Assembly (NCBI GenBank): GCA_964361095.1
Contig: CAYHZA010000001.1
Coordinates: forward strand, 1,456-65,455
Direction: 5' to 3'
DNA: 64,000 nt
Origin: an uncultured Candidatus Saccharibacteria bacterium
GTDB lineage: Bacteria; Patescibacteriota; Minisyncoccia; UBA6257; 2-01-FULL-56-20
The notes beneath the pieces are model-generated. The model saw only the letters and a list, made by a program, of their open reading frames with translations. It ran no database searches and was not told the DNA's origin. The position numbers and the translations under genes are program-made. Shown one piece after another: positions 1 to 10,120 of the stretch (position 1 is the first letter of the stretch; every line of letters starts with the position of its first letter).

Positions 1-141
1 AAATCTCGAAAGCCATTCGAGCTTGTATACTACGAAGCGTATAAGTCAGAAAGTGATGCTAGAAAAAGAGAGGCCAGCTTAAAGTTGCGAAGTCGAGCAT
101 TCGCACAATTGAAGAAACGTATAACCGACAGCACCAAGTAA
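1..141 (+). CDS. GIY-YIG nuclease (YhbQ/UPF0213-like), C-terminal fragment; 5' end lies beyond the window edge
   Basis: Frame 1 translates to KSRKPFELVYYEAYKSESDARKREASLKLRSRAFAQLKKR... This aligns with the C-terminus of the complete GIY-YIG ORF at 30512-30772 (RRPFELVYYEAYRAEDDARTREHNLKLRSNALNQLKRRLKK). Stop TAA at 139-141. Confidence 0.55.
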   Translation, partial: KSRKPFELVYYEAYKSESDARKREASLKLRSRAFAQLKKRITDSTK

Positions 142-154
142 TTTGGTGTGGGGG
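142..154. repeat. Right terminal inverted repeat TTTGGTGTGGGGG of the GIY-YIG mini-element family
   Basis: Immediately follows the GIY-YIG stop codon. Same arm as 222-236, 8486-8498 and 30765-30782. Confidence 0.6.
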
Positions 155-161
155 TAAACTT

Positions 162-389
162 ATGTCAAAGGAAATCGCCACTAAAACTGAGAAAGAAATT
201 CACCCCCACACCAAAGGGATTTTTGGTGTGGGGGTGTGCATCAAGTGCAAGAAGTGTGGCACTAAGGTTCTTTCTATTACGCGCGGTAGTTTAACCCCAT
301 GTAAGTGTGGGGCTATTTCTGTCGATGGCTCTAAAGAGTTAGTGAGAGTTATCGGTAAGCCAGAGGATTATGAAGAAATCCACAAATAA
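162..389 (+). CDS. Small zinc-ribbon protein (CxxCxxC...CxC) carrying an in-frame 36-bp palindromic insertion
   Basis: 75-aa ORF with Cys pairs CIKCKKCG...PCKCG. Codons 14-25 (HPHTKGIFGVGV) are encoded by the palindrome at 201-236. No clear RBS. Confidence 0.35.
   Translation: MSKEIATKTEKEIHPHTKGIFGVGVCIKCKKCGTKVLSITRGSLTPCKCGAISVDGSKELVRVIGKPEDYEEIHK
201..236. repeat. Solo (empty) hairpin copy of the CCCCCACACC element: cacccccacaccaaa-gggatt-tttggtgtgggggtg
   Basis: Perfect 15-bp inverted repeat with a 6-nt loop. Length 36 is a multiple of 3 and sits inside ORF 162-389. Confidence 0.7.
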
Positions 390-432
390 ATTTATGGCAA
401 GGAAATTATCAATAAAGTGGTAAAATGAAGGT

Positions 433-1281
433 ATGGCAAAAACTATAAAAATATTTTTGATTGACGGCGAACCTAACGGCCTAAAAACCGCTGAATTAAG
501 TAATTGGGTTGGTCAAGCAATCGTTATTCCTAGAAATAAACTTAAAGAAATAAAACAACGCCCTGAATGTAACAAGCCAGCAGTTTATTTTCTGATCGGT
601 AAAGAGAGCGAAGAAGCACTCTTGCCTACTGCATATGTAGGAGAGGCAGAAAATTTATGGAATAGACTATCTACTCATGATAGCTCAAAGGATTTTTGGC
701 AAACCGCAGTAGCGTTTGTGAGTAAAGATAATAATTTAACAAAAGCCCATGTTAGGTATCTTGAGAGTAGATGCTTAACTTTAGCAACTAAAGCAAAAAG
801 GTTTAATTTAGAAAATGGCACAGAATCATCTTTACCTTCTTTATCTGAAGCAGATATTGCCGAGATGGAAGAATTTTTGGAAAACCTGAAACTTTTGTTT
901 TCTGCTCTTGGCTACCCAATTTTGCAAGAAGTTATTTCTAAAGAACAAAAAAATATATCAGACCCTCTTTTTACTTGTAGGGGCAAAGATGCTTTAGCAA
1001 CTGGTCGTATGACAAACGACGGCTTTGTTGTTTATAAAGATTCAACCGCAACAACCGATATTTCGAAGGCAGTTATTGATCGTAATCAAAAAATTATAGA
1101 AAAGTTATTAAAAAATAATTATCTCGAAAAATTAAATGACGGCTTATATATTTTTGTTAAGGACTACGTCTTTAATAGTCCCAGTGCCGCATCTGATATT
1201 ACACTAGGCAATTCTACTAGCGGTTGGAAAAAATGGAAAACGGAAAGTGGCAAGACATTAGAAGAGGTTTATAGAAAATAA
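433..1281 (+). CDS. GIY-YIG (T5orf172-like) nuclease with C-terminal DUF4357-like domain
   Basis: N-terminal motifs VYFLIGK...AYVGEAENLWNRLSTH (GIY...YIG...R...H). The C-terminal tail SPSAASDITLGNSTSGWKKWKTESGKTLEEV matches the DUF4357 pattern as I recall it. Confidence 0.6.
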   Translation: MAKTIKIFLIDGEPNGLKTAELSNWVGQAIVIPRNKLKEIKQRPECNKPAVYFLIGKESEEALLPTAYVGEAENLWNRLSTHDSSKDFWQTAVAFVSKDNNLTKAHVRYLESRCLTLATKAKRFNLENGTESSLPSLSEADIAEMEEFLENLKLLFSALGYPILQEVISKEQKNISDPLFTCRGKDALATGRMTNDGFVVYKDSTATTDISKAVIDRNQKIIEKLLKNNYLEKLNDGLYIFVKDYVFNSPSAASDITLGNSTSGWKKWKTESGKTLEEVYRK

Positions 1282-1283
1282 AT

Positions 1284-3095
1284 ATGGGAAAGCTAAAAGA
1301 CATTCCAAAAATTGATAGACCGCGCGAACGATTCCTCCAAAAAGGAGCTGACGCACTTTCAAAAAGTGATCTTTTGGCAATTCTTTTAGGCAGTGGCATA
1401 AAAGGTAAAAATGTCAGGGAACTTTCAGAGAGTATTATCAAAAAATTTGGCAAAAACTTTTTAAATATAACCGTTGATGATCTTTTGGAAATTTCAGGGA
1501 TTGGCCAAGCCAAGGCATTACAAATTACTTCTGCAATTTCTTTGGTAAAAAGATTCTATGCGGACGAAAAATCAAACGAGACTATTATTAAAAATTCTCA
1601 AGATGTCCTATCATTCACCTACGATTTAAGAGATAAGAAAAAAGAACACTTGGTTTGTTTATACCTTAACGCAAGAAATTCTCTCCTCAAAAAGGAAATT
1701 GTTAGCGTAGGCTTACTAGATAAAACATTGCTCCATCCAAGAGAAATTTTTTATCCGGCAACAGAATTAAACGCCGCTAGTGTTATTTTAATTCACAACC
1801 ACCCATCGGGCGATTCTTCGCCAAGCGAAAAAGATAATCAAATTGTTGAAAAAATAGTTCAAGCAGGAGAAATAATGGGAATACCTGTTATTGATTTCAT
1901 TATTATCTCCGAAAATAATCATTATAGTTTTTATGAAAAACTAAGAAAGCAAAAAGAGACTTTTGATTATGTCGCTGACGGAATACAAGGGACACTCTTT
2001 GCAATATTTGAAGCTGAAAAACCAGCCTATGAAATAACTGCTGAAAAAATTCAAGAAAATTATTTCTACATCCCACAAGTAAAAGAAAATCACATCCAAT
2101 TACATAATCGCAGATATATAGGAAATAAACACAAACTAATTGAATGGATTTTTTCTATTATAAACAAAGAATGTAGTGGAAATTCTTTTGCAGATGTTTT
2201 TGCTGGGACGGGGGCTGTATCTGCTGTGGCGACAAAACACTTTAAAAAAGTATTATTAAATGATTTTTTACATTCCAATTACATAATATACCGTGCCTTT
2301 TTTGGAAAAGAAGCGTGGGACAAAAATAAGATAGATAGCATTATTAAGAGCTATAATAATATTTATGGCGGAGATTTAGAAGATAATTATTTTTCCAAAA
2401 ACTTTGGCGGTAAATTTTTCAGCAATAATTCAGCTAAAATTATCGGCTTTATTAGGGAAAACATTGAAGAAAACAAAAACAATTTAACGGAAAGAGAATA
2501 TTTTATGCTGATTGCGTCATTGCTTTATACGGCTGATAAAATCGCTAATACCGTTGGACATTTTGATGCTTATTTTAAAAAAGATTTTGTAAATGATAGT
2601 TTTTTCATGAAACCGATTGATCCGATTGATACCCAAGAAATATCTATTTTTCAAGAAGACACGAATGTTCTGGCAAAAAAGATAAAAGCAGATGTGGTTT
2701 ATATTGATCCGCCCTATAATTCCAGACAATACAGTCGTTTTTATCATGTACTTGAAACATTGACCAAATGGGATAAGCCAAAACTTTATGGAGTTGCGCT
2801 AAAACCAGATCCAGAAAATATGAGCGATTACTGCCGAGCTAATGCCAAAGAAAAATTTGCAGAACTTGTGAGAGATATTGATGCTCAATTTTTGGTTGTT
2901 TCGTATAATAATACATACGATTCAAAAAGTAATTCATCAAAAAATAAAATCACACTTCAAGAAATTGAAAAAATCTTACAAGCAAAAGGTAAAACGAAAG
3001 TTTTTGAAAAAAATTACAGACATTTTAATGCCGGTAATACAAATTTCAATAATCACAAAGAGTATTTGTTCGTAACTAAAAACCAACATGAATAA
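1284..3095 (+). CDS. Fusion protein: N-terminal RadC/JAB (JAMM) domain plus C-terminal Dam-like (D12 class) N6-adenine DNA methyltransferase
   Basis: RadC motifs include the HNHPSGDSSPSEKD JAMM signature and the helix-hairpin-helix-like ISGIGQAKA. The methyltransferase half has RRYIGNKHKL (Dam N-terminal motif), FAGTGAVS (motif I) and DPPY (motif IV). It is one continuous 603-aa ORF. Confidence 0.7.
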   Translation: MGKLKDIPKIDRPRERFLQKGADALSKSDLLAILLGSGIKGKNVRELSESIIKKFGKNFLNITVDDLLEISGIGQAKALQITSAISLVKRFYADEKSNETIIKNSQDVLSFTYDLRDKKKEHLVCLYLNARNSLLKKEIVSVGLLDKTLLHPREIFYPATELNAASVILIHNHPSGDSSPSEKDNQIVEKIVQAGEIMGIPVIDFIIISENNHYSFYEKLRKQKETFDYVADGIQGTLFAIFEAEKPAYEITAEKIQENYFYIPQVKENHIQLHNRRYIGNKHKLIEWIFSIINKECSGNSFADVFAGTGAVSAVATKHFKKVLLNDFLHSNYIIYRAFFGKEAWDKNKIDSIIKSYNNIYGGDLEDNYFSKNFGGKFFSNNSAKIIGFIRENIEENKNNLTEREYFMLIASLLYTADKIANTVGHFDAYFKKDFVNDSFFMKPIDPIDTQEISIFQEDTNVLAKKIKADVVYIDPPYNSRQYSRFYHVLETLTKWDKPKLYGVALKPDPENMSDYCRANAKEKFAELVRDIDAQFLVVSYNNTYDSKSNSSKNKITLQEIEKILQAKGKTKVFEKNYRHFNAGNTNFNNHKEYLFVTKNQHE

Positions 3096-3993
3096 CAAAA
3101 TCAAAAGGTCCCCGTTATTTTATGTCGGGGATAAATACAAACTAATGAAGCAATTGGTAAATTTATTTCCCAAAGAAGTGAATAATTTTTACGAACCTTT
3201 TGTTGGCGGAGGCACTGTATTTTTGAACATTGAAGCGAAGAAGTATTTTTTAAATGACATAAACAAACATCTGATTAACATACATAAGTTTTTGATGAAA
3301 AGCGCAGATAATCCAAGCTCGTTTTTTAAAAGCGTTGGAAAAGTAATATCCAAATATAAATTATCCAAATCTTACAAAGAAGATATAATTCCAGATTCAC
3401 TAAAAAAAGAATGGAAAAAAACTTATTTTGCCCGATTTAACAAAGAGGGATACGAAAAATTGAGAGTGTGTGTGAATAATAACAAAAAAAATGACCCTCT
3501 GATTTTGTATATTTTGCTTATATACGGGTTTAACAGAATGTTGAGATTTAATGGTGGTGGCAAATTTAATCTGCCTGTCGGGAATGTTGATTTTAACAAA
3601 AATGTAGTTAATGCCCTAAATGGCTATTTTGATTTTGTAAATAATAAGAAAATCACAATTACATCGAATGATTTTAAAAAGTTTTTTTTAGAGAAACAAT
3701 ATTTTAAAAATGATTTTGTTTATTTAGATCCGCCCTACTTAATAACCGCAAGCGAATATAATAAGTTTTGGGATTCAAAATCTGAATCTGACTTGTTAAA
3801 CTTAATCGATAATTTAGACAAAAGAGGCGTTAAATTTGCTTTATCAAATGTTACACATTACAACGGAAGCAAAAATGACCTTTTGATAGAGTGGATGGGA
3901 CAATATAAGGTACACAAAATTGAAAGCAACTATATTAGCTATCACAATAATGGGAAAAAGATAATCAAAGAAGTCTTGATCACTAACTATTAA
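3088..3993 (+). CDS. Dam-like (D12 class) N6-adenine DNA methyltransferase
   Basis: FYVGDKYKL N-terminal motif, EPFVGGGTVF (motif I), LDPPY (motif IV). Overlaps the upstream ORF by 8 nt, so operon-like. Confidence 0.75.
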   Translation: MNNKIKRSPLFYVGDKYKLMKQLVNLFPKEVNNFYEPFVGGGTVFLNIEAKKYFLNDINKHLINIHKFLMKSADNPSSFFKSVGKVISKYKLSKSYKEDIIPDSLKKEWKKTYFARFNKEGYEKLRVCVNNNKKNDPLILYILLIYGFNRMLRFNGGGKFNLPVGNVDFNKNVVNALNGYFDFVNNKKITITSNDFKKFFLEKQYFKNDFVYLDPPYLITASEYNKFWDSKSESDLLNLIDNLDKRGVKFALSNVTHYNGSKNDLLIEWMGQYKVHKIESNYISYHNNGKKIIKEVLITNY

Positions 3994-3997
3994 AATT

Positions 3998-5515
3998 ATG
4001 AAAAAACGACAATCCGAATATAAACCATTATTATTTACGACAACAATGAGAAATCCTGAACGACTAAAGGATTTTTTAACCGTGCTTGTTGAATATGATG
4101 GCGAAATTTTAACAAACGAAATTATTGATAAAGTAGCTAAAATCTTGATTCAAAAAGGGTTATATCAACCCATGAAAATAACGCAAGTAGTAAAAGGTAA
4201 ATGGAAAAACGAAATAGAACTAAGCGAGGCTGAAACCGAAAAAGTATTTGATGAGAATCCGCAAAGCCATAAAGAGGCAGGTTTTGAAAAAGGTTGGCCA
4301 TCGAGATTTGATACTTGGTTTAAAATTGCCAAAGAACTTGGTTTTGTTTGGTATTGGCCAAATGAAGAAATAAAATTTTCCGAAAGCGGGAAAATGCTAT
4401 TGGATAAAGAAAAACCTGAAAACGAATTGATGGTTTTTGCTAATGCTTTCGCAAAATATCAGCGACAAAATCCGTTTCGTAGAGTTTTAAATAAAAATGT
4501 ACCATTGATATTGCTGATACAAACAATAAAACTCCTAGACAATGACCCTGCCTATAATGGCACGGGTATTTCAAGGTTAGAAATTCCGTTATTGCTCTGT
4601 TGGCAAAATGATAATGCCGAAAGTTTATATCGTGAAATAAAAAAGTTGCGTAAAAAATATGGCTATTCGCCAAGCAATGAGATAGTTTTAGATCTTTGCT
4701 ATGAATTATTAAACGAAACCAAAAGAGACGATAATTCTATCTTAGGTGATTATCCCGATGATTTTATTCGCAAAATGCGTTTAACTGGTTTATTTTCTTT
4801 GCGTGGTGGCGGTCGTTTCATTGACATCAACACAAAAGAAATTGCGACTGTAAATTATATTTTAGAAAATTATATTTCTTATCCAACCTTTACGACTGAA
4901 AAAGATTATTTTGATTATATTGGCAAAGTGGACACCAATTTGATTGCAACGCTCTCCGTCTATGAAACTCCTGTTAGAACTACTAAAGCGGAGTTGGAAA
5001 AATGGGTAAATCATTATGCGTGGGAATCAATTAAAACCGAGATGCTTAATTTAGCGCAGAAAAAATCTTCCGAAGATGATATTTTGCGGGTGATAGAACA
5101 GCCTTTGCGTTTAGAGTTTTTAACCTCTTTGGCTATTCTCAAAAAATTACCAAATGTTGTAGTAAAGCCAAATTTTGTTTCAGATGATGAGGGTTTACCG
5201 ACAAGCTTTGCTTCTGGTGGAAACCCAGATATTGAATGTCTAGAAGATAAGGACACCGTATTGATAGAAGTGACTTTACTAACAGGCACACAGCAACATA
5301 TTAGAGAGTCATTTTCAGTACACCGACATCTTGAGGAGTATGTAAAGAAAGGCACTAAATCATATTCTGTGTTTATCTCCCCCAAATCTTTCATTGATAC
5401 TGAACGCTATTTTGATTTTATCAAAAAGGATGGTTTGGAAGTGAGAATTTCGAATATCGATAAATTCGTCCTCGGTCTTGAAGAAAAGACAACATTGAAC
5501 GAAGCGACTTTATGA
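3998..5515 (+). CDS. Candidate restriction endonuclease (type IIS-like, family unassigned; possibly AlwI-like)
   Basis: 505-aa ORF starting 5 nt after the second methyltransferase gene. The C-terminal segment GGNPDIECLEDKDTVLIEVTLLTG resembles a PD-(D/E)xK core. Two same-strand N6A methyltransferases upstream are typical of asymmetric-site type IIS systems. Family assignment is by context and memory only. Confidence 0.35.
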   Translation: MKKRQSEYKPLLFTTTMRNPERLKDFLTVLVEYDGEILTNEIIDKVAKILIQKGLYQPMKITQVVKGKWKNEIELSEAETEKVFDENPQSHKEAGFEKGWPSRFDTWFKIAKELGFVWYWPNEEIKFSESGKMLLDKEKPENELMVFANAFAKYQRQNPFRRVLNKNVPLILLIQTIKLLDNDPAYNGTGISRLEIPLLLCWQNDNAESLYREIKKLRKKYGYSPSNEIVLDLCYELLNETKRDDNSILGDYPDDFIRKMRLTGLFSLRGGGRFIDINTKEIATVNYILENYISYPTFTTEKDYFDYIGKVDTNLIATLSVYETPVRTTKAELEKWVNHYAWESIKTEMLNLAQKKSSEDDILRVIEQPLRLEFLTSLAILKKLPNVVVKPNFVSDDEGLPTSFASGGNPDIECLEDKDTVLIEVTLLTGTQQHIRESFSVHRHLEEYVKKGTKSYSVFISPKSFIDTERYFDFIKKDGLEVRISNIDKFVLGLEEKTTLNEATL

Positions 5516-5553
5516 TTGTAAAAAATTAGAATCAATTTACGAGAGCTAAATTT

Positions 5554-7461
5554 ATGGAAGATATTAAAGCAACAATTCACGGAGACGCTACAAGTGATCA
5601 AATTGAAGCAATTGACCACATTGGCAGTCATGCAAGATTACTCGCTGGACCCGGAACGGGAAAAACAAAAACGCTTACTCGGCGCGTACTTTCTTTGATT
5701 CTCCAACATAATGCCGACCCCGATTCAATTCTCTTACTTACGTTCACTCGTTTAGCCGCCGCTCAACTGAAAGATGAGATCAAAAAAGTGTTAGAACCTT
5801 TGGGCAAAACCATTCCACAAGTATCAACGCTTCACTCCTTTGCATTAAGGCAGATTCTTTATAATTCGAGCAGAATTGACACATTACCAAGACCAATCAG
5901 AATAGCCGATGACTGGGAAGAACGGTATATCATTCAAGAAGATTTAAAAAAAGTTTTAAATCTCAAAGAAATTGGCGATGTTCAAAAATTGATCAATCAG
6001 CTTTCAACTGACTGGGAAACTTTGAGAATTGATGAAATTGGCTGGGAGCAACAATTTCCAAACCCCGCTTTTCTTGGTGCGTGGCGAAGCCACAAAGATC
6101 AATATGGCGAAACACTAAGGGCGGAACTTGTTTATCAACTGAAAAAGCAGTTAAACCAAAGCAGGGATTTTCAATTAGACAAAGAGTATAAACATATTCT
6201 GATTGACGAGTATCAAGACCTGAACGCTTGCGATCTTGCCATAGTCAATGAATTAGCAAAGCGAGGCGCGGAATTATTTGTTGCGGGAGATGATGACCAG
6301 AGTATCTACGGCTTCCGTTTCGCAACCCCCGCAGGTATAAGAAATTTTGAACAGATATATCAAAATTCCAAAAAATTGGCGTTAGAAATATGTTTTCGTT
6401 GTGATAAAAACATATTACATTCAGCAGAATTTGTAGCGAGCCTTGATCCTGCACGCTTGCCAAAACCAACACGACCAAAAGACGAAGCTGAAGATGGTGA
6501 GGTTTTGATAATTGGTTTTAAGGATCAAAGTCATGAAGCTGAAATTATAGCCAAGAAAATAAAAAGTTTGATTGACGCAGACATCAAGCCAGATCAAATC
6601 ACAATTTTACTAAGAAACGACCGAAACAGCTTATTATCCAAGCCGATTATTGAAGCCCTAAAAAAGTATAGCGTCGATGTATCTTTGACGACTGATTCGG
6701 AATTAGAAAATAACAAGGAGTATCGAACAGTTTTATCAATAATTCGTTTGTTGGTTGATCAAAATGATTGTTTAGCTTGGCGAACATTATTACAAATCAA
6801 CAAAACTAATGGCTTGGGCGATGAGTGTATAAAAAGTATATGGAATTATGCGCAAAGCAAGGGAATACGTTTTAGTGTGGCTTTACAAAAAATAGCCGAA
6901 TCTCCAAGCGAATTACAAAAGTTTGGCCAAAAAATAGCAAAATTTGTTTCCGAAATAAACGTGGCAATCGTGGAACTCAAAGCCATTGAAAGTCCGACCG
7001 AAGCGATAAACGCAACAGTTGATAAATTTATGGGTGAAGGAGAGATAAAAGAACAAGTGAAAAAATATTTTGTTGGAATTTTGGAGAATCAAGAAAAACC
7101 TGATCTTGAGAATTTAATTAAAATAGTAAGTACTTCGTCGGAATATATTGAGCAAGAAACAAAAGAAAACGCTGTTAATATACTCACTATGCACCAAGCA
7201 AAAGGATTATCTTTTGATGTATGTTTTATAGTTGGTGCGGAAGATGAATATATTCCCGGACGAAATACAGGAGATAAGGAGGGCGATGAAAGAAGATTAC
7301 TGTATGTGTCCATGACAAGAGCGAGGCATAAATTATTTATCAGCTATTGTAATAAACGAACCGGACAACAAAGACATTCAGGAAGTAATAGCGGAACAGA
7401 AAAAAGAACATTAACCAGATTTCTTAGAGATTCCAAAATCCCAATAAAACAGGTAGAATAA
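5554..7461 (+). CDS. UvrD/PcrA-like superfamily-1 DNA helicase
   Basis: Walker A AGPGTGKT. Motifs LLLTFTRLAAAQL, DEYQDLN, and the C-terminal ILTMHQAKGLSFD...RRLLYVSMTRARHKL. Confidence 0.8.
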   Translation: MEDIKATIHGDATSDQIEAIDHIGSHARLLAGPGTGKTKTLTRRVLSLILQHNADPDSILLLTFTRLAAAQLKDEIKKVLEPLGKTIPQVSTLHSFALRQILYNSSRIDTLPRPIRIADDWEERYIIQEDLKKVLNLKEIGDVQKLINQLSTDWETLRIDEIGWEQQFPNPAFLGAWRSHKDQYGETLRAELVYQLKKQLNQSRDFQLDKEYKHILIDEYQDLNACDLAIVNELAKRGAELFVAGDDDQSIYGFRFATPAGIRNFEQIYQNSKKLALEICFRCDKNILHSAEFVASLDPARLPKPTRPKDEAEDGEVLIIGFKDQSHEAEIIAKKIKSLIDADIKPDQITILLRNDRNSLLSKPIIEALKKYSVDVSLTTDSELENNKEYRTVLSIIRLLVDQNDCLAWRTLLQINKTNGLGDECIKSIWNYAQSKGIRFSVALQKIAESPSELQKFGQKIAKFVSEINVAIVELKAIESPTEAINATVDKFMGEGEIKEQVKKYFVGILENQEKPDLENLIKIVSTSSEYIEQETKENAVNILTMHQAKGLSFDVCFIVGAEDEYIPGRNTGDKEGDERRLLYVSMTRARHKLFISYCNKRTGQQRHSGSNSGTEKRTLTRFLRDSKIPIKQVE

Positions 7462-7508
7462 CAATAGAAATTTAAAGTCCGCCGAAAAGTTTTGGGGGCA
7501 AAGCCCAA

Positions 7509-7561
7509 GCAGGCGGGCAAAAAGGAAGGGGGTTGGGGGGAAGGAATTTTTGCTCGCCTGC
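7509..7561 (+). terminator. Hairpin with G-rich loop downstream of the helicase gene (possible terminator)
   Basis: gcaggcgggcaaaaa ... tttttgctcgcctgc (14/15 bp) enclosing the loop ggaagggggttggggggaaggaa. No clear T-tract. Confidence 0.3.
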
Positions 7562-7609
7562 TTCCGTTCCCGTCCCGTTTGAGCAAAGAAAAATGATAAA
7601 ATAACTTTT

Positions 7610-8392
7610 ATGAAAATCAAATCAAAACCACAAATCCTAGAACGGCGGAAAGAGATCGAGCAGGAGCTCTTGGATATGCTCAAAGAAACAGAGAGCGATT
7701 TTACTCTGGATCATGTCCGGGACGTTATTTTCCATGAGGAAGACAACGACGACATGATGAAAGTCGTAGCCATGTTTGATCGCGGAGGAGACGCTTCGGA
7801 ATTGAGTAATGTTCTTGAACTCGTAACCGACGCCTGGAATTACTTTCCACATAAAGTGCTTGGTGGCATCTCTCCGGCGGAGAAATTACTAGAGCACCAC
7901 AATAAAACTAAACTTATGAAAATCAACAACACATTCAAACTCATCATCGCTATCATAGTCTCCGAGCTTGCCGGTATCATCGGCTCGGTGTTTACCACAC
8001 CATCCATTGCTGGCTGGTACGCTGGGATTGCGAAGCCTGCTCTTAATCCTCCGGCGTGGGTATTCGGACCGGTCTGGACGACGCTCTTTGCGCTCATGGG
8101 CATCGCGGCCTTTCTCGTCTGGAAGAAAGGGCTGGATCGCAGAGATGTAAAAATCGCTCTTGGCATATTCCTCGGCCAGCTGGTCTTGAACACGCTTTGG
8201 TCAATTATCTTTTTCGGTCTGCATAGCCCCGGCGGTGCGCTGATTGAGATCGTATTCCTCTGGCTCGCCATTCTCGCCACGATCGTTGCGTTTTATAAAA
8301 TCTCCAAACCGGCGGCGTGGCTTCTGGTGCCATATATTCTTTGGGTCAGTTTCGCGATGTACTTAAACTATGCGATCTGGGCATTAAATTAA
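7610..8392 (+). CDS. tspO: TspO/MBR family membrane protein with ~100-aa N-terminal hydrophilic extension
   Basis: C-terminal 160 aa read WYAGIAKPALNPPAWVFGPVWTTLFALMGIAAFLVW, LGIFLGQLVLNTLWS and WLLVPYILWVSFA. This is typical of TspO. Confidence 0.6.
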   Translation: MKIKSKPQILERRKEIEQELLDMLKETESDFTLDHVRDVIFHEEDNDDMMKVVAMFDRGGDASELSNVLELVTDAWNYFPHKVLGGISPAEKLLEHHNKTKLMKINNTFKLIIAIIVSELAGIIGSVFTTPSIAGWYAGIAKPALNPPAWVFGPVWTTLFALMGIAAFLVWKKGLDRRDVKIALGIFLGQLVLNTLWSIIFFGLHSPGGALIEIVFLWLAILATIVAFYKISKPAAWLLVPYILWVSFAMYLNYAIWALN

Positions 8393-8468
8393 GCAATTAT
8401 GACTCGGTGCAATTTGCTTAATATTTCTTTAGTTAAGCAAATCGTCCCACGCTCACAAATTTGGTTTT

Positions 8469-8499
8469 ACCCCCACACCAAAAACTTTGGTGTGGGGGT
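8469..8499. repeat. Solo hairpin copy of the CCCCCACACC element: acccccacaccaaa-aac-tttggtgtgggggt
   Basis: Perfect 13-14-bp inverted repeat with a 3-nt loop in an intergenic region. Confidence 0.7.
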
Positions 8500-8551
8500 T
8501 TACGGCTCGGACCGGATTCAACTGGTGGCAAACTCTTACTCTCGGTACAAA

Positions 8552-8789
8552 GCTCGCCCCGTTAGATAATTTCATATCTAACGGGGCGAGCCACCCCAGT
8601 AGTACAGCGAAGCTGACTACGGGGCAGGCAAGGGCAACCAAGTGGGGAATCAGGGGTTACAGGTTCTCGTACTTGGCCAGCAATCCTTTCACCCCGTTAG
8701 ATGCAAAGTTATCTAACGGGGTGAATCTGATCCAAAACCACGGTAGGATACCCCAGTAGTAGAACGTGAAGCGTTCACTACGGGGCAGG
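8552..8789. repeat. Two tandem ~136-bp units, each a long hairpin (CCCCGTTAGAT...ATCTAACGGGG) followed by a second hairpin (CCCCAGTAGTA...ACTACGGGGCAGG)
   Basis: Unit A is 8552-8628 and unit B is 8688-8789. The outer stems covary (gctcg/cgagc versus ttcac/gtgaa) while the inner stem is conserved. That pattern suggests a selected RNA or DNA structure. Confidence 0.55.
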
Positions 8790-8888
8790 TTTGTACTCCT
8801 CCGCCCAGTCAAAAGTTCGAAAATCGTTGAGCAGGGCGAGCTTTGGAGTCAATACAAATTACCCGGGAATGTGCGGCGCCCTGTTAAG

Positions 8889-8914
8889 GCGAAGGTTTTA
8901 ATTCGGGAGTAATT
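8889..8914. repeat. 21-nt motif GCGAAGGTTTTAATTCGGGAG(+NAATT), copy 1, upstream of lipoprotein gene
   Basis: Identical 21-mer recurs at 10002-10022. Both copies lie ~100 bp upstream of a start codon. Confidence 0.5.
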
Positions 8915-8917
8915 ACA

Positions 8918-8946
8918 TTGACATTTAGTACGAAGCGTGCTATGAT
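8918..8946 (+). promoter_or_regulatory. Sigma70-type promoter TTGACA-17-TATGAT
   Basis: ttgaca (8918-8923), a 17-nt spacer, then tatgat (8941-8946). An RBS aaaggaga lies upstream of the ATG at 8989. Confidence 0.6.
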
Positions 8947-8988
8947 GTTTTCGGCACTTAACTGATAATCAAAAAGGAGAAACGGGAG

Positions 8989-9411
8989 ATGAAAACGTCG
9001 AAAGGTATCGTATTGTTTTGTGCGGTATTGATCATCCTTATTTCGTCGGCATGCAGAGAAATAAAGATGGTTCTCTCGCCTGAAATGACAGAGGAAGCGA
9101 CTGTCGCTGATCTCGTCTACACGCCGTCAAATCACGGGAGCGACATCAGCCCGACCATGAACATGAACGGAGACCTCGGCGTTGCATTTACGAGTATCGA
9201 CATTTTGGAACGGTATGCAGTAGTCTTCCAGTGCCAGCATGAAAAGTTCATAGTCCAGAGCGACCAGACGAAAGCGAAGGAGCTTTGGACGCGCCTGAAG
9301 AAAGACCAGAAGGTGACCGTCAGATACAGAGAAAGATACGAGGAAACATTCGACGACGAGAAACTCGTCGAACGACGTCTGAAGAAATATGATTTCATCG
9401 ACGCCAACTGA
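8989..9411 (+). CDS. Small secreted or lipoprotein of unknown function
   Basis: N-terminal signal peptide MKTSKGIVLFCAVLIILISSAC (lipobox-like ISSAC). Good RBS. GC-rich relative to neighbours. Confidence 0.5.
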   Translation: MKTSKGIVLFCAVLIILISSACREIKMVLSPEMTEEATVADLVYTPSNHGSDISPTMNMNGDLGVAFTSIDILERYAVVFQCQHEKFIVQSDQTKAKELWTRLKKDQKVTVRYRERYEETFDDEKLVERRLKKYDFIDAN

Positions 9412-9446
9412 AGAGCGGCTGTTTCCTTCCCTTGGGGAACAACACG

Positions 9447-9470
9447 GGACAGGTACGAAAGTGCCTGTCC
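9447..9470 (+). terminator. Stem-loop ggacaggtac-gaaa-gtgcctgtcc followed by attttact
   Basis: 10-bp stem (one G-U pair) with a GAAA tetraloop, 36 nt after the stop of 8989-9411. Confidence 0.5.
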
Positions 9471-9640
9471 ATTTTACTATTAAAAATTATATTTTCTAAT
9501 TCTATTTTTACCTTACCCCAATCTACAGTTCTAAACGCGTCTAACAGATGGAACCAAAAAAACCAGCGGCTTAATGTCGCTAGTTTCTTGTTTTGTTGCG
9601 TGAGGAATCGAACCGAAGGTCGACGAATGACGATAAGGAA

Positions 9641-9699
9641 ATACTGAGCGTAGTAACGCGAATGTGCGAGGAAGTACTGAGCGCAACAGCGCGAATGTG
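9641..9699. repeat. Two tandem ~33-bp repeats (a[a/g]tactgagcg[t/c]a..a.cgcgaatgtg)
   Basis: Lies within the 640-bp non-coding region 9412-10054. Confidence 0.5.
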
Positions 9700-10001
9700 T
9701 ACTACTTAAAAAATCGCAGTCTCGAACGATCCGCCAGCTGGCGGAGAGAGTCGAATTTCTAAAGGTCCCAGAGGGATTGCGACTTGTATTCAAAATCGTT
9801 ACGCTTTTGAACAAGTCGGGAAACTGAGATTTGTAACCCCGCTATGCGCGGACAAATCGGGAGCCTACCCGCGGAGCTCGGAAATCAGATGCCCCTTGTT
9901 GGGGCATTTCAGATTTCGCTTCTTGGATTTGTGTATCAGATTTGGCAAAATAATTTCAAAAACTTGCCCCGTTGGAAGCCGTAGGCTTTCTTTCGGGGTT
10001 T

Positions 10002-10027
10002 GCGAAGGTTTTAATTCGGGAGCAATT
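10002..10027. repeat. 21-nt motif GCGAAGGTTTTAATTCGGGAG(+NAATT), copy 2, upstream of ABC exporter gene
   Basis: 21/21 identical to 8889-8909. Confidence 0.5.
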
Positions 10028-10120
10028 GATTTCTGATTATTTTATAATGGGTTTTTGTGCCACTCCGATCGGGCTCAATCTTTTTATTGCTTAGTTTTCA
10101 TGTTTTACTTACTAAATAGG

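Follow-up and report, generated by a model that had tools for sequence, protein, structure and literature searches.

The window analysed here, a stretch of 64,000 nucleotides from contig CAYHZA010000001.1 of an uncultured Candidatus Saccharibacteria bacterium, raises the question of whether the AT-rich run of genes near its start is one composite defence module or a set of separate parts that have come to lie together. A sequence-only reading of this DNA had proposed a composite of six genes, all of which were found as open reading frames (ORFs) on the forward strand at exactly the positions proposed. The low-GC block spans 433–7461, with a GC content of 0.337 compared with 0.465 over 7610–64000, and every other 7-kb stretch of the window has a GC content of at least 0.444. 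The drop in GC had been placed over 1–7470; the drop itself is real, but its true start is at approximately 432, which is also the edge of nucleotide homology common with relatives. This drop, together with the 95–96% nucleotide identity of the cassette in contigs with unrelated flanks, indicates acquisition by horizontal transfer, as had been suspected. The block is probably a horizontally acquired mosaic island composed of an AlwI-type restriction-modification (RM) core and recurrent RM satellites. Three modules would have been assembled here: the RM core (1284–5515), a gene of the PDC-S14 family (433–1281) and a UvrD-like helicase gene (5554–7461). The intergenic gaps across the block are, in order, 2, −8, 4 and 38 bp.

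The core is very probably an AlwI-family type IIS-like RM cassette, an operon type that is already known, as judged from Pfam, NCBIfam and PADLOC hidden Markov model (HMM) scans of the window proteins. The last gene of the core (3998–5515, forward strand) encodes a predicted AlwI-family type II(S) restriction endonuclease (REase) or nickase of 505 amino acids (aa). The protein matches Pfam RE_AlwI (PF09491; E-value 2.7e-42, 145.7 bits against a cut-off of 23.1), which speaks against a non-nuclease family for this ORF, and it aligns end to end with the PADLOC model REase_II (PDLC03507; 3e-131, residues 4–498 of 505). Matches in PDB are the R.BspD6I small subunit (8e-11) and N.BspD6I (1.5e-7). 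The C-terminal PD-(D/E)xK-like segment foreseen in the sequence-only reading was borne out: the catalytic domain is predicted at aa ~390–480, and D411, E424-V-T and E437 align to the region of N.BspD6I and R.BspD6I that we take to hold the catalytic residues. Residues D411, E424, V425, T426 and E437 are invariant in an alignment of 12 REase sequences, of which the window protein keeps every invariant residue. There are 2461 homologues at E ≤ 1e-5, several of them named "AlwI family type II restriction endonuclease" by NCBI, and many are 70–97% identical across Patescibacteria, Nitrospirae, Omnitrophota, Atribacteria, Margulisbacteria, Bacteroidota, Deltaproteobacteria and others. An exact match to the window REase was not found in the assembly collection, and a search of the phage collection with this protein returned no match.

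The two genes preceding the REase gene encode adenine methyltransferases (MTases) on the same strand, as had been claimed. The first, M1 (1284–3095, forward strand), is a RadC protein fused to a D12-class N6-adenine DNA MTase (aa ~270–600) with FAGTG at 306 and DPPY at 475 (PADLOC MTase_II PDLC03373, 5e-124). The second, M2 (3088–3993, forward strand), overlaps M1 by 8 nt and is a Dam-family D12 N6-adenine DNA MTase (Pfam MethyltransfD12, 5.2e-32; TIGR00571 dam, 8.6e-44) with FVGGG at 38 and DPPY at 214, which passes the NCBIfam cut-off for the Dam family (150 against 114.85 bits). Both proteins therefore keep FxGxG and DPPY. M1 and M2 match the N- and C-halves, in that order, of the fused type II MTase models PDLC03292 and PDLC03287, and they occur as one fused protein in two relatives (L020, L070). 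The neighbourhoods of 80 genomic loci with an REase homologue (L001–L080) were searched by tblastn with the window proteins, and the M1-M2-REase order is colinear and constantly spaced in approximately 65 of the 80, which come from many phyla. The same order is annotated on plasmids of Staphylococcus epidermidis and Helicobacter, and AlwI-family REases have been described as always associated with dual or fused adenine/Dam MTases (PMC12898733). The type IIS-style interpretation of the earlier reading is upheld by these results: gene order is conserved, and the MTases are not orphans, as an AlwI-family REase directly follows them. We infer that M1 and M2 would divide the two strands of an asymmetric site between them, each methylating an adenine, and that the AlwI-family enzyme, with one PD-(D/E)xK-type site per chain, would nick or, as a dimer, cut unmethylated DNA beside that site.

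The cassette could also be viewed as a decaying remnant, for example with a point-mutated REase, in which only the MTases act, as epigenetic regulators. This cassette family does decay, as illustrated by one relative (L018) with a truncated REase and lost MTases. All ORFs of the window cassette are of full length, however, with little space between genes or even overlap; the REase shares 97% identity with relatives and has lost none of the invariant residues, and the MTases keep their FxGxG and DPPY motifs, leaving a remnant very improbable.

The REases of the 80 loci form two clades that are approximately 50% identical to each other, and the D411/E424-V-T/E437 motif is intact in both. The MTases paired with either clade are equally similar to the window MTases (~74–78%), and for this reason the restriction and modification genes must have been re-assorted between lineages, presumably within one specificity. 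Word usage was examined by Markov-corrected observed-to-expected (O/E) ratios for all 5-mers in the window and in approximately 700 kb of pooled flanks of related loci. GGATG ranked 8th and 13th among 5-mers with an O/E of just 0.79–0.87, and no site was called from it. As a separate observation, the host part of the window (7500–64000) shows strong depletion of GCAGC (O/E 0.37), CCAGG (0.50) and CTCAG (0.56), and the 5-kb cassette (432–5520) contains no GCAGC or CTCAG at all. These depletions look like footprints of other restriction systems on the host lineage.

The RadC half of M1 is composed of a helix-hairpin-helix (HhH) region at aa 5–78 and a JAB domain at aa 102–219. It matches UPF0758_N (4.4e-22) and RadC (1.1e-37) in Pfam, passes the NCBIfam PRK00024 cut-off (218 bits against 180) and resembles the RadC homologue 2qlc in PDB (7e-26); with MethyltransfD12 in the same ORF, these matches substantiate the RadC-MTase fusion that had been predicted. 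RadC-M1 is a single uninterrupted ORF in all 41 loci in which both parts are complete. The JAMM signature (E153, H171-x-H173, PS180-181 and D183) is invariant in 42 sequences, across which the RadC half is conserved at 0.81–0.85 and the MTase half at 0.83. Full-length RadC-D12 fusions form only two clusters among 1.84 billion cluster representatives. RadC halves that are 44–62% identical to that of the window are also fused to C5 cytosine MTases (P0370, P0374, P0378, P0452), and one is fused to an N6_N4 MTase (P0428). No mention of RadC-MTase fusions was found in the literature searched, including papers on RadC-domain fusions. The single RadC-C5 locus inspected (L116, 298–3403) encodes a 647-aa RadC-C5 cytosine MTase fusion followed by a 390-aa MTaX1 (methylase-associated) gene with overlapping stop and start codons, and this RM-like operon is RadC-first, as in the window, with a different MTase class.

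In relatives that lack RadC, the N-terminal slot of M1 is filled by an XRE-type helix-turn-helix (HTH) domain (HTH_3/HTH_31; L028, L035) or by a MerR/HTH_17 domain (L054). It holds the HhH half of RadC only (UPF0758_N) in L047, L070 and L076, and nothing recognisable in some other RadC-less relatives. A further locus (L114, 2453–4649) encodes an N6_N4 MTase with an N-terminal LexA-type DNA-binding domain and S24 peptidase next to a PDC-S14 gene, a further case of an RM MTase whose N-terminal slot is occupied by a module of regulatory or cleavable kind. By comparison of these occupants, the slot is likely to serve regulation or targeting. The HhH and JAB module would tether M1 to DNA through the HhH region, and the JAB domain would add a putative, conserved metal-dependent activity.

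The remaining parts of the island have separate histories from the core. Two relatives (L002, L003) have only 1280–5526 in common with the window, at 96 and 89% nucleotide identity respectively, and in three others (L001, L006, L010) homology extends over 432–5520, which adds the PDC-S14 gene (L001 at 96% over 432–5515). For most contigs with the helicase (L082–L091), homology covers only ~5550–7465 at 77–91%. One locus (L081) matches the whole of 432–7593 at 95% and is the sole recurrence of the five-gene block. The proposal of one six-gene composite is not supported by this distribution, as only ~13 of the 80 loci have the PDC-S14 gene with the cassette, only 3 of ~64 have the helicase after it, and the zinc-ribbon gene is never found beside it. 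The alignments depict the island as a mosaic of separately mobile modules with gene-precise edges, and the island exemplifies how defence genes are shuffled as modules, with the precision of single genes, among uncultured bacteria, those of candidate phyla included. Upstream, the neighbours of the cassette are PDC-S14, an integrase, a DUF5655 protein or ordinary host genes. In the decayed cassette of L018 (1–6860), RadC-M1 is reduced to its first 182 nt and the REase gene has lost its 5' part; Schlafen/AlbA_2-HATPase and PLD/NgoFVII-like genes are inserted between the remnants, and a membrane-anchored HerA-like ATPase is encoded downstream.

The first gene of the island (433–1281, forward strand) encodes a 282-aa PDC-S14-type protein with an N-terminal GIY-YIG-like region and C-terminal matches to DUF4357 (8.9e-19) and, weakly, to RAMA (4e-4). 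The PADLOC model PDC-S14 (PDLC04925) matches over the full length (9.8e-107, residues 2–280 of 282). This gene had been described as a T5orf172-type GIY-YIG nuclease with a DUF4357 tail. The DUF4357 tail stands, T5orf172 gave no HMM match at E ≤ 0.01, and the GIY-YIG match is weak and sub-threshold. Proteins described as containing DUF4357 include type IV enzymes of the GmrSD type and GIY-YIG/T5orf172 proteins (PMC4619093). Residues Y52, Y68-x-G70-E71, R78, E111 and N128 are invariant in 27 homologues, a pattern that fits a GIY-YIG active site. Searches identified 3119 homologues at E ≤ 1e-5, of which the 120 best are 78–95% identical, and the literature found offered no published mechanism for PDC-S14. 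The gene lies 2–5 bp upstream of RadC-M1 in 9–10 loci and just downstream of the REase gene in three. It also occurs in other RM settings, namely between an HTH gene and a D12 MTase followed by an NmeDI-type REase (L113), adjoining an unknown 432-aa protein and two N6_N4 MTases (L114), and after an HTH gene and before M1, M2 and an AlwI REase beside a serine recombinase (L115). Judged by these contexts, PDC-S14 is a satellite gene of RM systems that moves as a module of its own and would ride in the leader position of RM operons.

The last gene of the island (5554–7461, forward strand) encodes a UvrD/PcrA/Rep-type superfamily 1 (SF1) helicase without a nuclease domain. The earlier assignment to UvrD-like SF1 helicases is confirmed by Pfam UvrD-helicase (2.5e-48) and UvrD_C (2.1e-40); motifs I, II, III and VI are intact, and the matches in PDB are UvrD1, UvrD and PcrA. 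A housekeeping UvrD, PcrA or Rep was considered and rejected, as the scores fall far below the NCBIfam equivalog cut-offs (PcrA 254.8 against 911.2, UvrD 214.7 against 1144, Rep 211.5 against 951) and the gene is of low GC content and moves alone between contigs. A survey of 15 loci with helicases from 98% down to 58% identical to this one showed that the immediate neighbours are an RM system, whether of Type I, II, IIS, III or IIG-like, in 14. The systems are of Type I in L082, L110 and the P0347 locus, of Type III in L083, L085, L086, L088, L090 and L108, and of DpnII type in L107 (Desulfurella amilsii) and L111. L091 contributes a two-MTase and HNH system, L084 a PLD-SNF2 and Eco57I-like system, and the AlwI cassette is the neighbour in the window and L081. 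In 12 of the RM-adjacent loci the order is RM system then helicase, co-directional, with a gap of at most 40 bp except in L091 (~400 bp). An RM system is thus near-obligatory from the side of the helicase, and the helicase is one option among many from the side of the AlwI cassette. This asymmetry argues for dependence of the helicase on RM systems, short of proof. The helicase gene is a separately mobile single-gene module beside RM systems of many types, and would ride at the 3' end of RM operons. It most likely acts on nicks or ends made by the RM system, or could serve as a stand-alone second line of defence co-transcribed with it.

A contig from a further assembly, L106 (ENA ERZ1292627, Hain_H51_01um_R2_19, 169,584 bp), encodes a 100% identical helicase with the same downstream genes. 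The contig starts 166 bp upstream of the helicase gene, which indicates that the assembly broke inside the island; this suggests strain-level variation of RM cargo in the source community.

The company of the helicase and of RadC also bears on whether either acts in restriction. Both could be machinery of a mobile element, with the helicase serving element replication or transfer, as PcrA serves rolling-circle replicons, and RadC processing DNA at entry, a role that has been proposed for RadC in the polyvalent proteins of conjugative elements. In the P0347 locus and L111, genes for an integrase and ParB do lie a few kb 3' of the helicase gene, prophage-like genes lie beside it in L108, and a serine recombinase or integrase adjoins the cassette in L115 and L024. 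Yet there is no integrase, relaxase or replication gene between the repeats or beside the helicase in the window or in L081–L091, and in all 41 loci RadC is joined covalently to the MTase, with two other classes of MTase also serving as fusion partners. These fusions tie RadC to methylation and away from transfer, and element machinery is accordingly an unlikely explanation.

Repeats at the island border are relevant to how its parts came together. The right edge of the island (7477–7593, no strand assigned) carries the inner ~115 bp of a ~390-bp repeat, identified by blastn, which is an inverted pair in relatives. The pair surrounds blocks of HTH, RM and helicase genes with different RM cargo in L081 (146–534 and 7971–8106) and L082 (1217–1605 and 8933–9323), and in L004 the copies at 2–116 and 7113–7227 form both contig ends. 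The window holds one copy only, the right one, in shortened form. A tRNA-Ser(CGA) gene lies just outside the left copy in L081, and housekeeping genes follow the right copy in L097. Rfam searches of the window and three loci returned tRNAs only and no match for the 115/390-bp repeat, which shows no significant fold stability (z-score −1.67) and no convincing ORF. The ~390-bp inverted repeat may delimit a mobile element of the non-autonomous kind, or it may mark a hot spot of recombination.

With these borders in mind, the RM cassette, PDC-S14 and the helicase may be functionally independent defence genes, co-located only because mobile cassettes build up and swap at the same integration sites, in which case PDC-S14 and the helicase would each act against phage by itself. 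We hold such a defence hot spot to be a serious possibility, if short of probable. At least 10 different defence-type genes occupy the slot after the REase gene in relatives, the decaying cassette of L018 is being replaced by Schlafen/AlbA_2, PLD and HerA-like genes, and the edges of module homology are sharp and gene-precise. The inverted repeats around different cargos (L004, L081, L082), with tRNA-Ser by the left copy in L081, and the status of PDC-S14 as a single-gene candidate in PADLOC point the same way. Against this, the RM neighbour of the helicase in 14 of 15 loci, mostly with a gap under 40 bp and on the same strand, and involving at least eight different RM systems and helicases with as little as 60% identity, is more specific than island clustering. 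In L081, L113 and L115, PDC-S14 is an internal gene of the operon, placed after the HTH controller and before the MTase.

The interpretation of the island as an RM core with RM satellites has to be weighed against several observations that do not favour it. Neither GGATC nor GAGTC is notably depleted in the window or in the ~700 kb of flanks, and no recognition site could be deduced. The gene after the REase gene in relatives encodes AAA_15/OLD, AAA_13, HerA-like, SIR2, DUF6119, KAP NTPase, Shedu SduA_C, HARE-HTH/PD-(D/E)xK, PDC-S14 or UvrD-like proteins, and given a slot this variable, the helicase may be a hot-spot neighbour and no co-factor. One helicase locus (L112) has no RM genes. An integrase gene lies ~6 kb from the helicase in two loci (the P0347 locus and L111), and prophage genes lie beside it in L108; with such neighbours, the helicase could belong to a mobile element's own machinery. 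The window contains no HTH controller gene upstream of 433. For PDC-S14, the Pfam GIY-YIG match scores 16.7 bits against a cut-off of 22.6 (E-value 0.0094), and the N-terminal half is called GIY-YIG-like from this sub-threshold match and from motif spacing. AlphaFold2 modelling of the protein from the 27-sequence alignment gave a mean predicted local distance difference test (pLDDT) score of 54.6, with the N-terminal half below 50. Foldseek comparison of this poor model with PDB gave nothing below an E-value of 0.1, and a profile search of PDB sequences returned noise only.

A mosaic RM island nevertheless remains the preferred interpretation, and its parts differ in strength. The RadC module, PDC-S14 and the helicase each recur beside unrelated RM types and may be general RM helpers. 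Functional coupling of these satellites to restriction is close to an even question, leaning slightly towards doubt. Bolder still is the idea that unrelated RM types have in common a set of portable co-factors, so far unrecognised, that includes the RadC module (on D12, C5 and N6/N4 MTases), the UvrD-like helicase (co-transcribed downstream of Type I, II, IIS and III systems) and PDC-S14; we consider this rather doubtful. RadC may in that case direct the MTase to DNA that is entering the cell or being replicated, or it may act on a substrate, either protein or DNA. The helicase may unwind from restriction nicks or ends, which could make restriction irreversible in hosts without RecBCD/AddAB, by analogy to MutH-UvrD. 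The RM core is routine in itself and adds an uncharacterised, very widespread clade to the AlwI family, from which biotechnology could gain a new specificity, either type IIS or nicking. RadC is a near-universal bacterial protein without an established function, and its joining to three MTase classes in RM operons, with the active site conserved, offers a concrete and testable context for RadC biochemistry. A compact clade of UvrD-like helicases that almost always has an RM system beside it, of whatever type, suggests that restriction has a helper or back-up layer so far unrecognised. Two subjects merit further pursuit, namely this RM-bound helicase clade and the RadC-MTase architecture that recurs in three classes of MTase.

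The genes immediately outside the island are close to the host in composition. The window begins with the 3' end of a GIY-YIG-type gene (1–140, forward strand; Pfam GIY-YIG 3.5e-4, below the curated cut-off), which is cut by the window edge, has a GC content of 0.42, near that of the host, and lies outside the island. It is followed by a small Cys-rich ORF (162–389, forward strand) encoding a DUF7695 zinc-ribbon-like protein (Pfam DUF7695, 9.7e-11 over aa 27–73). This gene had been counted as an island member, a placement that is contradicted by its near-host GC content of 0.434, its position beyond the homology edge and the lack of any tblastn match to it in the 80 related loci. Neither the zinc-ribbon gene nor the TspO gene on the other side is ever a neighbour of the cassette in those loci. 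A dispersed hairpin repeat, CCCCCACACCAAA-loop-TTTGGTGTGGGGG, is found at 142–154, 203–234, 8470–8498, ~30491/30769 and ~53677/53802, with nine hits compared with 0.05 expected, and one copy overlaps the 5' part of the zinc-ribbon ORF. Because this repeat fills 203–234, the true start of the ORF is probably the GTG at 228 or 234. The hairpin was considered as the att sites of the island and rejected, owing to the further copies elsewhere in the window.

Downstream of the island, the TspO/MBR gene (7610–8392) has an N-terminal extension of ~110 aa without a Pfam match, which is 85% identical at the nucleotide level to a segment 3' of the helicase in L085 (9677–9945). The region that follows (8400–10050) is a long non-coding stretch with dense paired hairpins (ccccgttagat...atctaacgggg and ccccagtagta...tactacgggg, each twice) and a direct repeat, gcgaaggttttaattcgggag, at ~8890 and ~10003; no Rfam family was identified there at the gathering threshold. 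A scan of 1–8500 for promoters and terminators found promoter-like sites below the shuffled expectation and terminator-like sites ~1.7 standard deviations above it, which is not clearly above expectation.

Among known systems, Gabija resembles the island in that the window helicase matches the PADLOC GajB models (8e-59) and OLD/AAA_15-type genes fill the slot after the REase gene in the sister loci L001 and L002. However, the window helicase has no GajA/OLD gene beside it, and the same holds for 14 of the 15 helicase loci (in L090, an AAA_23 protein is encoded downstream); the constant neighbour of the helicase is an RM system. Gabija was rejected for the helicase, as there is no GajA, that is, no OLD/AAA_15/TOPRIM gene, in 1–8400 of the window. 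The RM-linked back-up genes of the PrrC/RloC type are similar as accessory genes within or abutting an RM operon, and AAA_13 (PrrC/RloC-family) genes occupy the slot after the REase gene in L004, L049, L065 and L044; they differ in sensing RM inhibition, of which the PDC-S14 and helicase genes of the window gave no evidence. The PADLOC candidate PDC-S14 is of the same family as the window protein and is listed there as a single-gene candidate.

Regulation of RM systems by C-protein-controlled operons, or by MTases with an N-terminal regulatory HTH, provides two further comparisons. A small HTH_3 gene heads the operon in the relatives L081, L082, L113 and L115, similar to C-protein-controlled operons, whereas the window operon has no controller gene within the window. 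The XRE-, MerR- and LexA-type HTH domains in the M1 slot of RadC-less relatives resemble HTH-regulated MTases; the window slot instead holds RadC, of which the HhH region could bind DNA and the conserved JAB active site would imply catalysis beyond mere repression. The RadC fusions described by Iyer and Aravind (HhH-RadC, RadC-ArdC, RadC-primase, RadC-DinG and polyvalent proteins) have in common with M1 the HhH and JAB module, intact metal ligands and a DNA-conflict context, and differ in that the partner in the window is the DNA MTase of an RM system.

The closest likeness is to the type IIS RM systems of the AlwI/BspD6I/BstNBI type, which have an REase of the RE_AlwI family with the D...E-V-T...E region aligned to N.BspD6I and R.BspD6I, and two D12/Dam-class N6-methyladenine MTases upstream in the order M1-M2-REase, as on the S. 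epidermidis and Helicobacter plasmids. The window REase is just 30–41% identical to the plasmid-borne members from cultured bacteria, and the window system has no small-subunit gene, in contrast to heterodimeric R.BspD6I. The window system further differs from this type in its M1, which bears an N-terminal RadC with HhH and JAB domains.

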